Source: Eledone cirrhosa (taxonomy: Eukaryota). From it: a stretch of 64,000 nt of DNA. Of this stretch, positions 7,377 to 57,254 are shown piece after piece. Within the stretch, counting starts at the first letter, position 1; every line of letters begins with the position of its first letter. Location: the NCBI GenBank assembly GCA_964016885.1, contig OZ024755.1:11904001-11968000 (forward strand), read 5' to 3'. The position numbers and the translations under genes were made by a program. Below the pieces are notes generated by a model. The model was not told the DNA's origin and did no database searches. It saw only the letters and a list, made by a program, of their open reading frames with translations.

Positions 7377-9612
7377 CCTCTTCCTGCTATATCAAGCGTT
7401 AACCTGATATATACCTTCCATATACTGTACCGATTGTGTTGTTATTTCTGTTTACCTTTTACACACACACACACACACACACACACACACACACATATAT
7501 ATATATATATATATATATATATATATATATATATATATATATATATATATATATATATATATATATATTACAAGTAATATGTTACATAATTGTGTGTAGA
7601 CTCTACCTTATGCAGGTGTTTGTGATGTTTTGGATAATATAAATGTTGTGTTTGCTGTGTTTACATGGAAATGTTATAAAGAATAATCAAATAAAAACAT
7701 TTATGAATTCTCTGTGCATATAAATGCGTTTTTAATTGTGACTTAGGATAGTTTTGTGAGCAATACATTCTCGGCAAGTGTGTCCCTGCCGTCAAAACTG
7801 GCGGTAATTCACATGTATATTAAAGGTTATTCATATCCACGACTTATGTGGAGGAATAGGAGAAAAGTTTACAGAGTTAAAACACCAACAATGGATGGAT
7901 GGAGGTGGAAGAAAAAGGAGCTTTCTTAGAGGATTAACTACCTATTGGAATCCCACTAAATATTTGTCATAAGGAAATTCAAAGTTTAAAATTTAATTAA
8001 AGCAATTTTTTTTACATTATACTCTCTAACACACTTTCCACCCAGCTCTCAATTTGCCCCTCAAATTTTCTCTCTTGTGAATAGTATTTGTGATGTCAAG
8101 CTGTACATTTTCTGAATACTGATATTCATTTTATCGGGGACTTTCACTTTTTTTTGTCAATCAGCTAAGATACGGGTGCCTGCAATGAGGCTTTAGCATT
8201 ATAGTAACAGTCAATAGTGTTGAAACACATGTTGCATACACCTCAGAAACAAAATGCATCAGTAATTATTTTAATGTACAGTTGACCACCACTTGTATAG
8301 TTCTAAATCTAATTCTGTGCAGTAAGATTACATTTTGTGTGAAATACTATGTTTACGTAGTAAATGATAGTTAAAAGACTACCTATTACAAATGCTTCTC
8401 AAACTCAGAGAATAGCAAACATAAGGTCATAGAACTTGTCTCAAAGATTTGGGCAATTCTAAAAAATTTTTTAAATCTGAAATGCACACTTAAAATTTTC
8501 TACAGAAATAATATGCTGCTACAAAAGGAACTTCAAACATCACTGGTGACAACTCGCTATATTATACTAAAAGAAGAGAAATAAATAAAGAAATATATAG
8601 AAATATATTTTTGTAAATAAGACAATAGAAACGTGTGGAAATGGAAGCACCAATTGAAACATAAGTTTTAAATCTCCGAAGCCGTTTATGGAAGTATTGA
8701 AGAAGACAAGAAAACACACTTCGATCTTCCGACGTGGAAGAGGCTTCTATCAGAAGAAACCGTCACCGAATCATCATTTTTCTTACCTGTTGTACAAACC
8801 TGGCTGGACACAGAACACTGCACAAACATTCTAAAAGTTCTATAGAGTTATGAAATAATACATATGAATAAGCCATAGATGACGAACATCATTAGGTAAT
8901 GTCAGTTTCATGAGGAGATAAAACGCCTCCATCCTTTTGAAGAAAAAAAAAAAATGAGTATAAATCCTGGAAAACTGTAAGTCCGGTATTGAAGAAAAAA
9001 AAAAAAAATCACAAGGGATTGACACTCCACATTCACTATTCTCCTTTTACTTTGCTCCACTTTTCAAATTAAATGACACGACGGTTCAGTTATATTCAAA
9101 TATTGTAAGCGCGTCCATTGAGAATATTAAATACCATTCTTTCATCTAATACAACACAATAAAGACTAAAGTGTTTAAAAGAAAAAAAAAAATTGATGTT
9201 GAAGTAAAAAAAAAAAAAAATGATATCCCCTACATATGATAGTGCTCAGCCGTTTGTTATTTCATAGGAACTCTGCGTACAAAATAAAATCAAAACTATA
9301 TTTTAAAATCAAAACTATATTTTTAGTTAGTTACCTACCTACTTTACAAATTATTCCCTGTGGTTGTTTCATATGTTTATTTTATATATATATATATAAT
9401 TATATATATATATTGGCAACATGACCCTCCCAAAGTATAACAATATCGGTTTCAACACACGTTTTCAAATAAAGAATGCTAAACAAATTCAGAAACGAAA
9501 TATATATATATATATATATATATATACGTAGGTCCCGGGTTGAGTCGGGGATAACCACAGTAAGTAAGGTACTCAATACATGGCAGAGTAAATTTTTTTA
9601 TTTTATAGAAGG

Positions 9613-9663
9613 AGCTTCTACAGGACTAGTACTGTTTCATTCAGATGAAATCTTCAGGAAGCT
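9613..9663 (-). ncRNA. Type I hammerhead ribozyme (family C)
   Basis: Minus strand reads AGCTTC-CTGAAGA-tTTCatctGAAt-GAA-ACAG tactagtc CTGT-A^GAAGCT. 6-bp stem I, 4-bp stem III, loop containing palindrome ACTAGT, GUA site. Confidence 0.85.
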
Positions 9664-10246
9664 GGGTGTCATATTAAGTTCTGGTATTTATACATTTAGG
9701 TAGAGGCAAGGGAGGGTGGTGGATGGGGGGGGGGGGGGTATTTAGATACACAGGACCACTACATGGCACAGGCCGTTTTTTCTATGGGGAGTGGTCAATT
9801 AGCCAGAGTGCTTTTTTGAAATAAATAAATAAGTAAATAAATAAATAAATGAATATATAAATAGATAAATGAATAAATAAATAAAATAAATAAATAAATA
9901 AATAAAAAATAAATAAATAAAGACCCCAAGAAAGGTAATTCAACAGATAGTATCTGTTGAATTACCTTTCTTGGGGTCTTTATTTATTTATTTTTTATTT
10001 ATTTATTTATTTATTTTATTTATTTATTCATTTATCTATTTATATATTCATTTATTTATTTATTTACTTATTTATTTATTTCAAAAAAGCACTCTGGCTA
10101 ATTGACCACTCCCCATAGAAAAAACGGCCTGTGCCATGTAGTGGTCCTGTGTATCTAAATACCCCCCCCCCCCCCCCCCCCCCCCATCCACCACCCTCCC
10201 TTGCCACTACCTAAATGTATAAATACCAGAACTTAATATGACACCC

Positions 10247-10297
10247 AGCTTCCTGAAGATTTCATCTGAATGAAACAGTACTAGTCCTATAGAAGCT
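10247..10297 (+). ncRNA. Type I hammerhead ribozyme (family C, inverted copy)
   Basis: Same fold as 9613-9663 but CTGTA is CTATA, giving an AUA site and one stem III mismatch. Confidence 0.75.
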
Positions 10298-11369
10298 CCT
10301 TCTATAAAATAAAAAATATATATATATATATATAATTGGATATCAGTAAAGTCGAATCTCTGGCGGTTTGCAAGTAAATTCGGCCTACTTATATGAAGTG
10401 ATGAGTTAGCAAAGCACTCGATAAGGTAGGGCCTTAGAGTAATAACATACGTTTAAATAGCTTGACAAATCGAACATTGTGGTAGGCTAAACTAACACAC
10501 AATATGTACCAAAGCAACGATAGAACTAATCAGGTTGAGAATATATATATATATGTCAATCAACTTCTAGTTGATATATATATATATATAATCATATCGT
10601 TAACACACGCATATGCTGGAGTGGCTCAAAAGCATGCATTATATACACTCTGCATAAATATCCATATAGACTTATTTACACTCACACATCTTTTTACCCT
10701 TTCAACGTTCGTTCAACCTCAACTAAGAAACAAAGTAACTTCATTTTGGTTAGAAATGAAGCGATAGGGTAAATATAAAATCAACAGATAGTAGCACAAG
10801 AACAACACAACTATATACATATAATACCACAACAACTGGAGAACTATATACAGATACTACAATAACAACAGATGCTACCAGAACAACAACACTACTATAT
10901 ATAGATAATACCACAGAAATAACAGAGCTGTATACAGATAGTTTCACATCAACAAAATTATCTACATATATATAGTACTACAACAAAAAGAGTAGAACTC
11001 TATATAGATAGTAGCACAACAACTACAATAACAGGAAGGAAGGGAGGAAAAGGTGAAAGACTACAGCTGGGTTGTTATGAAATGGTAGATATAACTTGAG
11101 GGCAAACCATGATCAAATCAGACAATCTCGCTAAGGTCGTCTGCTGTGACAGAAATTACTCGCTGGCTTTTTTTTTGCAGAAGATCAAACGTTTCTAAAG
11201 TAGCTTCCATTTTCCTTTCGGCTCAACGGTGTTTGTAAAACCTTATTTATGTTGTTTTTCTCTATGAAGGAGGGTGGGGTGAAAAAATCTACATTTCTTA
11301 AGATGTAACAGTTACACTGTATGTATGCATGTATGTGTGTACGTATGTATGTGTTTATGTCTGCACACA

Positions 11370-55508: not shown

Positions 55509-55559
55509 AGTTTCAGAAGATCCCGTTAAGAGTGAAAGCAGCGATTCTTCGCTTAAACT
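55509..55559 (+). ncRNA. Family B hammerhead-like fold (CAGAAGA core)
   Basis: AGTTT-CAGAAGA-tcccgttaagagt-GAAAGCagcgattcttcGCTT^AAACT. Confidence 0.55.
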
Positions 55560-55933
55560 TTAATCTGTTATTTTAATATATATATATATATATATATATA
55601 TATATATATATATATATATATATATATATATATATATATATATATATATACAAATGAATATATGATAGGGATAAATACTGATACAAGTATACATGTGTTT
55701 GCATTGCAAATGACCAAGTTAGCTAGATTGAAAAATACTAATTAAAATAATACGGTTTGCCTGTCTCGATTTAAAATAATAAATCAAGAAAAACAATTAC
55801 ACGGCTCAGAAATATCCCTTTCTTTGAGCTATTTAATTGTAAAAGACTATTTGAGTTTATAACTCTATATAATATATATATATATATATATATATATATA
55901 TATATATATATATATATATATATATATATATAT

Positions 55934-57087
55934 CGAATAAGAAAAAGCGAAGTAGTTTCAGATGTTAAAGTCCTTTAATGATAATGATGTGATACATATT
56001 TCAATGACGACAGTGGCCACACGGTTCGGTGCGCCCAGTGCCGTGACATCATCAGACAGCTTTTTACATAAGAAGTTTATGTTTCCGAGGCAATCCAAAT
56101 TGAATCGAAACTTCTTAAACTATAACTTAAACATCTCCCTATTTATTAGTTATTATATGTATATATATTTTTTTACTTACTTCAATCTAGATTCTAACTT
56201 GTAATTTTTTTCAATTTTTGATTTTTAATTTTTAATTTTAATTTCCAACTCTCATTCATAATTTCCACTGTGAAACCATAATCGTTTCTACTTTTGGGTA
56301 CAAGGCCAGCAATTATTTCAGTGTATTACTGGTACTTTATTTTATCGACCCCGTAAGGATGAAAGGCAAAGTTAACCTCGGTGGGATTTGAACTCAGTCC
56401 GTAAAGGGAAGTAACTCTTTGCTGCAAAGCATAGCGTCCGACCCTCTACCGATACTGCCAATCCACTGTGAAACCATAATACCTAGAAATAAGTATATAT
56501 TCTCTTAGCGGTTGATGGTCAATTCTACTGTCCATGCTTAATTTAGGGGTAGTATTGAGACCTATTGATACTCATACTCTCCCACCCCCACTAGCTTTCG
56601 GCCGGCTGCCACTAAAGGGTGGCTAGCAGTAAACTATAGCCGTGTCATATTACAGGCCTGGATGGGGTTTGTTTTGTTGAGAGGGGGACTTGCCTAGGCG
56701 AGTTGCGTAGAACTCTGCGGTAGTTGATGGTCAACTTCCTTCGGACTTGCGCCTGCGCAGACCGGTGGGGGTGAATTGGAACTCACAAGGGAACGGGCGA
56801 AGAACTCAAGAGCACACGCTTTGTCCGTTCCCATGTCGATTCAATTTGGATTGCATCGGAAACATAACCTTCTTATGTAAGAAGCTGTCTGATGATGTCA
56901 CGACACTGGGTACACCGAAGCGGGTGAGCACTGTCGTCATTGAAATATGTATTACAGCATTATCATTAAAGGATATTAACATCTGAAACTACTTCGCTTT
57001 TTCTTATTCGATATATATTCCGTCACACCTATGTGGAAAAAGTTCGTTGAATGCTTGAATTGAATTGCATCAATATTTACCTTAAGT
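55934..57087. mobile_element. Family F fold-back element with two HHRs (55986-56060 -, 56884-56958 +) and one-sided tail
   Basis: Inverted arms at about 55934-56110 and 56836-57011. The + copy reads GCTGT-CTGATGA...GAAATATGTATT^ACAGC. Tail 57012-57087, TA arrays on both sides, SINE nested inside. Confidence 0.8.
56281..56468 (-). mobile_element. Same SINE family, nested in family F element
   Basis: TSD gtgaaaccataat. Confidence 0.85.
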
Positions 57088-57254
57088 ATATATATATATA
57101 TATATATATATATATATATATGTAAAAGTTCTATTTAAATTGTTGGGATACAACAAGCAAATATTTTTATAACTGATATAAAGCACTCAACAAATATTTG
57201 GAGTAAAAATACGATATATTAACAAATGGAAACTATATTTATAAAACCATATTT

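Follow-up and report, generated by a model that had tools for sequence, protein, structure and literature searches.

Hairpins in the window

The window, as we call the whole 64,000-nucleotide stretch analysed here, comprises positions 11,904,001 to 11,968,000 of contig OZ024755.1 of Eledone cirrhosa (GCA_964016885.1; G000:C15:11904001-11968000) and lies within a 3.0-Gb genome. An initial annotation had drawn attention to nine sites of a motif of about ten nucleotides in the 3′ tails of insertions that it took to be unrelated. Judged by sequence, this motif is the 3′ strand of a small predicted bulged hairpin of Penelope-like elements (PLEs) of the Hydra clade, and this hairpin is almost certainly a conserved structured element of these PLEs. 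Its form is 5′-RCUC-Y..loop..R-UH-GAGY-3′: a loop separates the two strands of a variable stem, which is flanked by RCUC on the 5′ side and, after a two-base bulge, by GAGY on the 3′ side; the complement stands upstream of nearly every motif site. The bulge is UU, UC or UA, with a single U once, and the loops are 3 to about 100 nt long. The order along the element is hammerhead, hairpin 1, hairpin 2, ATG. The hairpins of the window and the insertions that carry them are listed here; letters and numbers denote our families.

9526..10315, minus strand: family B fold-back insertion, Hydra-clade PLE, with arms 9595-10315 and a one-sided tail 9526-9594
9571..9589, minus strand: hairpin 1 of family B, ACUC-UGC-(3)-GUA-UU-GAGU, containing most of the exact motif 9569-9579
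9620..9657, minus strand: type I hammerhead core upstream of the hairpin, CTGAAGA..GAAAC..GTC, 3′ limit approximate
10416..10440, minus strand: hairpin 1 of another family, ACUC-UAAGG-(5)-CCUUA-UC-GAGU, present in the minimum free energy (MFE) fold
17418..17604, plus strand: family A fold-back insertion with arms 17418-17524 and tail 17525-17604
17533..17556, plus strand: hairpin 1 of family A, ACUC-UACU-(6)-AGUA-UU-GAGU, starting 8 nt past the tail-less end
18829..18838, plus strand: 3′ strand of hairpin 1, family D; the 5′ strand is intact at 41457-41502 (plus) and 35887-35932 (minus)
23500..23510, minus strand: 3′ strand of hairpin 1, family C, the 5′ strand lost by a short deletion
37045..37102, plus strand: long-loop hairpin, ACCC-CAAAC-(~40)-GUUUG-UU-GAGU, lower stem with one C.A mismatch
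37561..37584, minus strand: hairpin 1 of a family A copy, exact motif absent from the initial annotation
45038..45061, plus strand: hairpin 1 of a family A copy, exact motif likewise absent from it
48815..48838, plus strand: hairpin 1 of a short family A copy
53113..53136, minus strand: hairpin 1 of a diverged family A copy
54023..54058, plus strand: candidate hairpin ACUC-C..G-UC-GAGU with one upper pair, the weakest among the nine sites
57017..57052, plus strand: hairpin 1, AUUC-CG..CG-UU-GAAU, most copies having ACUC/GAGU; hammerhead core from 56889
57185..57204, minus strand: hairpin 1 of family H2, ACUC-CAA-(4)-UUG-UU-GAGU; hammerhead-like core from 57310
58572..58595, minus strand: hairpin 1 of a family A copy, a further exact motif absent from the initial annotation
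59002..59026, plus strand: hairpin 1 of a further family with UA bulge, ACUC-CAGU-(7)-ACUG-UA-GAGU, also new relative to that annotation

At 18829 and 23500 the 5′ strand is missing from the window copy and present in other copies; the family C hairpin reads ACUC-UAC-(4)-GUA-UU-GAGU elsewhere in the genome (L008, L029, L159). Site 54051 had no second copy among the sequences compared. The family B inverted arm carries a second hammerhead copy on the plus strand, from 10253. The hammerhead at 9620..9657 had no Rfam match among the matches listed, and the best 150 of 200 Rfam matches in window positions 1-61500 were all below the gathering score and lay on microsatellites or palindromes.

All nine motif strings are found at the places and on the strands first given, CGTTGAATGC being one base off (57045-57054). 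The exact 11-mer, described as present in three tails, has six sites in the window (additionally +45053, -37559 and -58570), four of them in family A. It had been placed 30-80 nt ahead of a terminal TA array, and eight of the nine sites do lie 29-79 nt before at least four TA units; at 54051 a degenerate AT run follows about 50 nt downstream and the nearest true TA array is 197 nt away. Positional enrichment, proposed as a check, was found in 78 blindly chosen 10-kb pieces (780 kb), where 31 of 39 exact sites fall into a single 20-nt bin upstream of the array, against 2.4% of background positions. Genome-wide there are 94,661 exact matches against 1,015 for the reversed pattern used as control; the first 30, inspected by eye, comprise 12 of family A, about 12 family B-like, 3 of family C and 3 others. 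The count is thus dominated by a few big families, and the family must serve as the counting unit. As described, the motif belongs to the tail, a part absent from the inverted arm (arms 9595-10315 and 17418-17524), the tail-less ends stopping ahead of the hairpin. The proposal of a conserved cis signal is borne out in PLE tails; the linear 10-mer, however, was the wrong unit, being one strand of a hairpin that occurs twice per element. The complementary 5′ strand had not been recognised, and neither had the second hairpin, which shows up only outside the window, in copies that read through.

Conservation and covariation of the hairpin

With a strict descriptor, hairpins were found in 99 of 1,810 flanks of TA arrays, compared to 7.7 (maximum 11) in 12 dinucleotide shuffles; the flanks came from 119 sequences (1.24 Mb), window included. 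The 99 matches form 29 tail clusters, 14 of which have at least two copies, and some of the singletons are expected by chance. A 40-locus subset gave 26 matches in 489 flanks against 2.0 in shuffles and was only partly held out, the UA bulge having joined the descriptor after earlier looks that covered those loci. The opposite-strand control yielded 39 matches, many of which are the same real elements bearing TA arrays at both sides.

Covariation was assessed on boxes chosen, for both strands of the hairpin, by sequence alone. Among 31 tail clusters of this genome the outer pair exchanges A-U for G-C (13 and 11 clusters, 7 others; Fisher p=0.004), and the first upper pair exchanges U-A for C-G (18 and 8, 5 others; p=0.0007). 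A second set was drawn from marine metagenomes, where an alignment of Hydra proteins was used to fetch 78 loci; 76 hammerhead-like rows were reduced to 61, representing 32 families. The box is located 42-64 nt after the hammerhead core in 27 of these, while the other five comprise three with tail-less copies only, one false core and one family without a box. The first upper pair is Watson-Crick in 26/27 families (14.6 in shuffles), the second in 22/27 (10.8) and the third in 18/27 (7.1), counts that include one mis-picked 5′ partner, corrected later, and shuffles that ignore relatedness, so that p-values are optimistic. The pair next to the outer box is U-A in 17 families and C-G in 10. RNAalifold returned the same structure unprompted from the 27 families: four base pairs, a 2-nt bulge and three base pairs.

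Since the families belong to one clade, the box could have been inherited, and the initial annotation had itself named residual homology as the explanation that tails alignable over their full length would favour. Such alignment was not seen: over the 30 nt following the motif, none of the 36 pairs among the nine sites exceeds z=3. We consider residual homology without function hardly credible, because the flanks lack detectable similarity and the master open reading frames (ORFs) of families A, D and H2 are 41-53% identical, yet GCUC/GAGC is invariant in 27/27 metagenome families and the interior pairs covary. The elements first taken to be "unrelated" are distant families of the Hydra clade.

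Host elements

A Pfam scan of the window recognised no PLE ORF of at least 120 codons, and no ORF of the hairpin families survives there; the families were therefore traced outside the window. The Hydra clade as characterised in the accessible text of Craig 2021 (PMC8557442) has RWK-type and DKT motifs, a CxCx5C linker and a C-terminal endonuclease (EN), together with a sense hammerhead near the 3′ end, (TA)n targets, partial tandems, an inverted 5′-truncated arm and a one-sided tail. In the masters of A, B, D, H2 and a family with an 830-amino acid (aa) product, RWR replaces GxKF/Y (RWK-type, the third residue being R, not K) and DKG is modified to DKT, as SDKT; YRDD is a further motif of the Hydra-type ORFs to which these five families are linked. 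The EN part was examined in two families: the 830-aa family has a C-terminal GIY-YIG EN, the CxCx5C linker and flanking CxxC and CxH, and family B has YIG, CxxC and CxH in a copy frameshifted at the linker. A sense hammerhead near the 3′ end is predicted from a CTGANGA..GAAA core pattern in families B, H2, 57044, 830-aa and L082. (TA)n targeting, partial tandems, the inverted arm and the one-sided tail are all found in these families. On these sequence characters the hairpin-bearing elements are assigned to the Hydra clade.

Family B, tied to a Hydra-type ORF in locus L228, continues past its hammerhead, hairpin and tail into an ORF that encodes the motifs RWR, DKT and YRDD and, at the C terminus, a YIG domain. 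Its read-throughs (L309-L328) often jump from the first ORF codons back to the hammerhead region, giving mini-tandems of less than 200 nt that resemble small retrozyme-type units. Families D (18829) and H2 (57183) read through into Hydra-type ORFs, the latter via hairpin 2. The masters of family A lie in tandems of about 3.5 kb, with a Hydra-type ORF, and four-unit tandems are present; their hammerhead core is a variant, UUGAGAAGA or UUGAUAAG replacing CUGANGA, with a long stem II (L345, G000:C1:91478652-91481671, minus strand). The view of family A as a non-autonomous mini-element without hammerhead (10 matches) was rejected on account of this autonomous master. The 830-aa family is young, with 150 scored matches 99-100% identical and an open ORF (L071, L139-L146 and L230; e.g. 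G000:C1:183738001-183748000), and is a good candidate for biochemistry. It has a 3′ untranslated region (UTR) of about 4 kb filled with microsatellites, and its tandem spacing is about 6.7-7 kb.

Of six published Hydra consensi in the accessible part of PMC8557442, three show the box clearly by eye: hairpin 1 forms the end of Hydra-2_Amil and Hydra-2_Ajap, and both hairpins stand at the start of Hydra-1_Ajap. Outside the clade, four 8-mers gave 19 matches in the Craig supplement, and among the matches listed none outside Hydra stands at the end of a Naiad or Chlamys element, although line breaks may hide matches; Naiad_Mmer has one look-alike of the box about 450 nt from its 3′ end. In the single Neptune-like family considered (L035; YVDD, Cx2-5CxxC) no RCUC/GAGY box occurs in the interval that begins at the hammerhead and runs to 200 nt beyond the end. 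A hairpin ascribed to a Neptune-like family (H35, 8 matching ends) proved to be a single chimeric junction and was dropped. Neptune-like copies are present in the window at 38824-39434 (minus) and 9414-9499, with the master at L035:2021-5790 (minus); copies end about 27 codons into the ORF. The read-through of this one family has a 5-bp hairpin of other sequence about 8 nt beyond the shared end, a hint that a hairpin just 3′ of the start may be a rule wider than Hydra.

A second hairpin and the ends of insertions

A second hairpin was predicted just past the tailed ends before families of this genome were searched for it, and it was found in four of the five families searched: 6 nt past the tailed end in A (504 pattern matches, some counted twice) and in D (460 matches), 9 nt past it in H2 (79 matches), and 6 nt past the end in one read-through copy of the 57044 family (L392). 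In the 830-aa family, where it had been observed before these searches, it lies 9 nt past the end and has a loop of about 100 nt. A tandem-looking pair retrieved by a pattern that also matches TA arrays was discarded, as it is not a read-through. In the metagenomes hairpin 2 is present in 18 of the 27 families, mostly 55-71 nt after hairpin 1, and the Hydra ATG follows it by 15-42 nt in 17 of these 18; the remaining nine families are mostly represented by 3′ copies or short contigs.

Tail-less arms end just 5′ of hairpin 1 and tailed arms just 5′ of hairpin 2. Mapping on read-through references gave 16 modal TA junctions, of which 15 are located 5-10 nt 5′ of a hairpin base; 15 of the 16 also match the TA target, by UA-type stretches of 2 to 6 nt. 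Excluded before this count were low-complexity matches at 294-318 of the 830-aa reference, internal ATATAT matches (D 117, H2 21), rows whose reference ends in TA, and the distal ends of references without read-through. In family A the ends fall 8 nt (14 copies) and 6 nt (36 copies) before a hairpin; in the 830-aa family eight copies end before hairpin 1, two before hairpin 2 and six read through. Each insertion end thus lies 5-10 nt 5′ of one hairpin, which makes the tail, about 60-140 nt long in this genome, the stretch between two start sites, with hairpin 1 inside it. Of 45 tailed family A copies, 34 extend 123-150 nt back. The hammerhead cut site is at 97, and no copy has its end within 5 nt of it, which implies a template uncut or re-ligated there; most short copies break off in the long stem II, and we infer that copying usually broke off in this stem.

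Both hairpins are located upstream of the ATG, hairpin 2 by the 15-42 nt given above, and the boxes might therefore be 5′-UTR control elements (an internal promoter or translational autoregulation), with the ends set by the UA-rich tracts ahead of them. An internal promoter is known in Penelope, whose 34-bp repeat gets a basal-promoter score, although the accessible text of the same paper (PMC2377424) has this repeat as not required for transcription. Half-sites spaced 3 to about 100 nt apart with compensatory pairs are unlike a site for a double-stranded DNA factor, and UA tracts are common in AT-rich regions, yet the ends cluster at two sites per family. We regard such control as improbable when offered in place of an effect on reverse transcription; a translational role of the boxes could exist alongside their role for the reverse transcriptase (RT).

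How the hairpins may act

The hairpins probably set the starts of reverse transcription: each would anchor the RT of the element so that copying begins 5-10 nt upstream. Of the roles first proposed for the motif, RT recognition or priming is accordingly the best reading, whereas an endonuclease signal or transcription fits the geometry less well. The GIY-YIG domain would nick both strands of a (TA)n target. With an RT held on hairpin 2, the nicked TA end would pair with the UA(U) just upstream, and the tail, hammerhead and body would be copied; a second RT on hairpin 1 would be primed likewise from the other strand and produce the tail-less arm. Two 5′-truncated cDNAs joined head to head would then give a fold-back with a one-sided tail. 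The pair of hairpins thus likely tells the RT where to start, which would explain the one-sided tail. Because hairpin 2 is left uncopied where an end is tailed, the RNA template of a long tailed copy would have to be multimeric or circular; earlier work has proposed that PLEs pass through circular intermediates (PMC6765202, accessible part). We give about an even chance to the fuller scheme, in which two copies of one RNA anchor serve as rulers for integration by two RTs on two strands of DNA from multimeric or circular RNA. Each hairpin would hold its RT 5-10 nt downstream of the UA alignment site, an arrangement similar to the primer-alignment-plus-anchor design of telomerase. If true, this would account for the tails and inverted arms of PLEs, and an RNA of any kind would be written into (TA)n sites once provided with both boxes.

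The hairpins may instead act as DNA, in the cDNA or a single-stranded intermediate, as endonuclease sites, nearby cutting resolving the intermediate and setting both ends. Craig 2021 (PMC8557442) credits the tail to EN-mediated resolution and Frangieh 2024 (PMC11167929) reports that the D. virilis tail is needed for EN recognition, both as far as their accessible text goes, and the strand bias of our hairpins is weak. However, tailed ends lack hairpin 2 and tail-less ends lack hairpin 1, so that each hairpin stands on the uncopied side of its junction, which an anchor on the RNA side fits more simply. The TA match at the junctions suggests priming, and in the available part of PMC11167929 the two genomic ends of PAc are the RT start sites seen in vitro. 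We consider action as DNA unlikely, though less so than control from the 5′ UTR.

Several observations weigh against RT anchoring by the hairpins. The hairpin is weak: of 12 sequences folded, only some have it in the MFE fold, and hairpin 1 of A, B and H2 is absent from it. G.U outnumbers A.C by 21 to 10 (p=0.07), favouring sense RNA only weakly, and the C.A mismatch of the 37095 family would pair on the opposite strand. Where a junction adjoins UA in AT-rich sequence, its position is known only to within a few bases. The tail-less ends of family B scatter over 3-18 nt, and in a second mapping stand at 19-20 nt in three of four cases; its second element is a plain GCAC/GUGC stem 7 nt past the end, without the bulged upper stem. 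The first pattern search found no hairpin 2 in the 57044 family, and pattern search gave none for the L082 family. Among the metagenome families the upper stem of hairpin 2 covaries weakly, several 5′ partners having been mis-picked. The box, by eye, is divergent in Hydra-1_Crog and not visible in Hydra-1_Amil and Hydra-1_Obim. Finally, the PAc start is not homologous to the cut DNA (PMC11167929, accessible text), unlike the Hydra junctions here.

Comparison with known systems

In long interspersed nuclear elements (LINEs) a single hairpin lies 5′ of the start and is copied into DNA. Hydra elements differ from the stringent LINEs in having two hairpins, each 3′ of its start, with one left uncopied. 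The likeness to the 3′ stem-loops of stringent LINEs, such as eel UnaL2, consists in a small conserved hairpin with a required bulge near the RT start (PMC1636434 and PMC4176376, in part).

The nearest experimental parallel, the PAc Poseidon element of Frangieh 2024, belongs to another clade. According to the portion of PMC11167929 that is accessible, both strands are cut and extended in vitro, hammerhead cleavage is unnecessary, the tail spans the distance from one RT start to the other, and the RNA must extend to +172 although a start maps at +111-118. Two internal RT starts that bound the tail and the need for RNA 3′ of the start are thus common to both systems. In PAc, however, the start is in an AC-rich stem-loop within the ORF, and the same portion defines no paired cis hairpins. 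The tails in PMC8557442 are 30-40 nt, shorter than those here, and no tail motif or hairpin is described in its accessible text.

The template boundary element of telomerase RNA and SL5 of DRT10 are likewise stem-loops that keep a fixed distance to a short segment for primer alignment, serving RTs of a TERT/PLE-related clade (PMC12632851, accessible part). Whereas these hairpins, placed 5′ of the template, bring synthesis to a stop, those of Hydra are found 3′ of the first copied base, where they would determine the start; Hydra elements also show no repeat addition. As PLE RTs are close relatives of telomerase, the hairpin bears on the origin of an RNA anchor combined with a short primer-alignment site.

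The architecture of PLEs is already known (PMC8557442; Arkhipova 2013, PMC3846280), as are their hammerheads (PMC4209133, PMC7229834, PMC6765202, bioRxiv 10.64898/2026.07.22.740005), each source as far as accessible. No description of the box or of paired hairpins at PLE ends was found in the accessible literature, although Repbase or Dfam entries and supplements may have one; the hairpin is a new cis element of a known clade. The hairpin also bears on how PLEs choose their RNA and why they form an inverted arm with a one-sided tail. Craig 2021 calls for an in vitro PLE system, and Frangieh 2024 mapped two starts without a cis signal (PMC8557442 and PMC11167929, accessible text). A covarying hairpin, repeated twice and at a fixed distance from both ends, offers exact mutations for such assays, and the box can serve as an annotation marker for Hydra-clade ends, of which this genome has tens of thousands.

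Other repeats in the window

Further small fold-backs, several between TA arrays, are located at 53714-53857, 48562-48680, 19336-19440 and 24341-24411; the first has a hammerhead-like core and no tail. An abundant repeat resembling short interspersed nuclear elements, about 190-210 bp long with copies 85-97% identical, is found at 15358-15563, 19705-19900, 23964-24172, 56274-56489, 59567-59786 and 6774-6989. Two recent direct duplications (1953-2580 / 7569-8199 and 2642-2961 / 41598-41917) are 97% identical, and their starts adjoin microsatellites. The end of the window, 61706-64000 on the plus strand, is occupied by a 36-bp tandem array of 64 copies with a match of 95%. The array lies within an open frame, at least 428 codons long, that is Thr/Pro-rich and mucin-like by composition.

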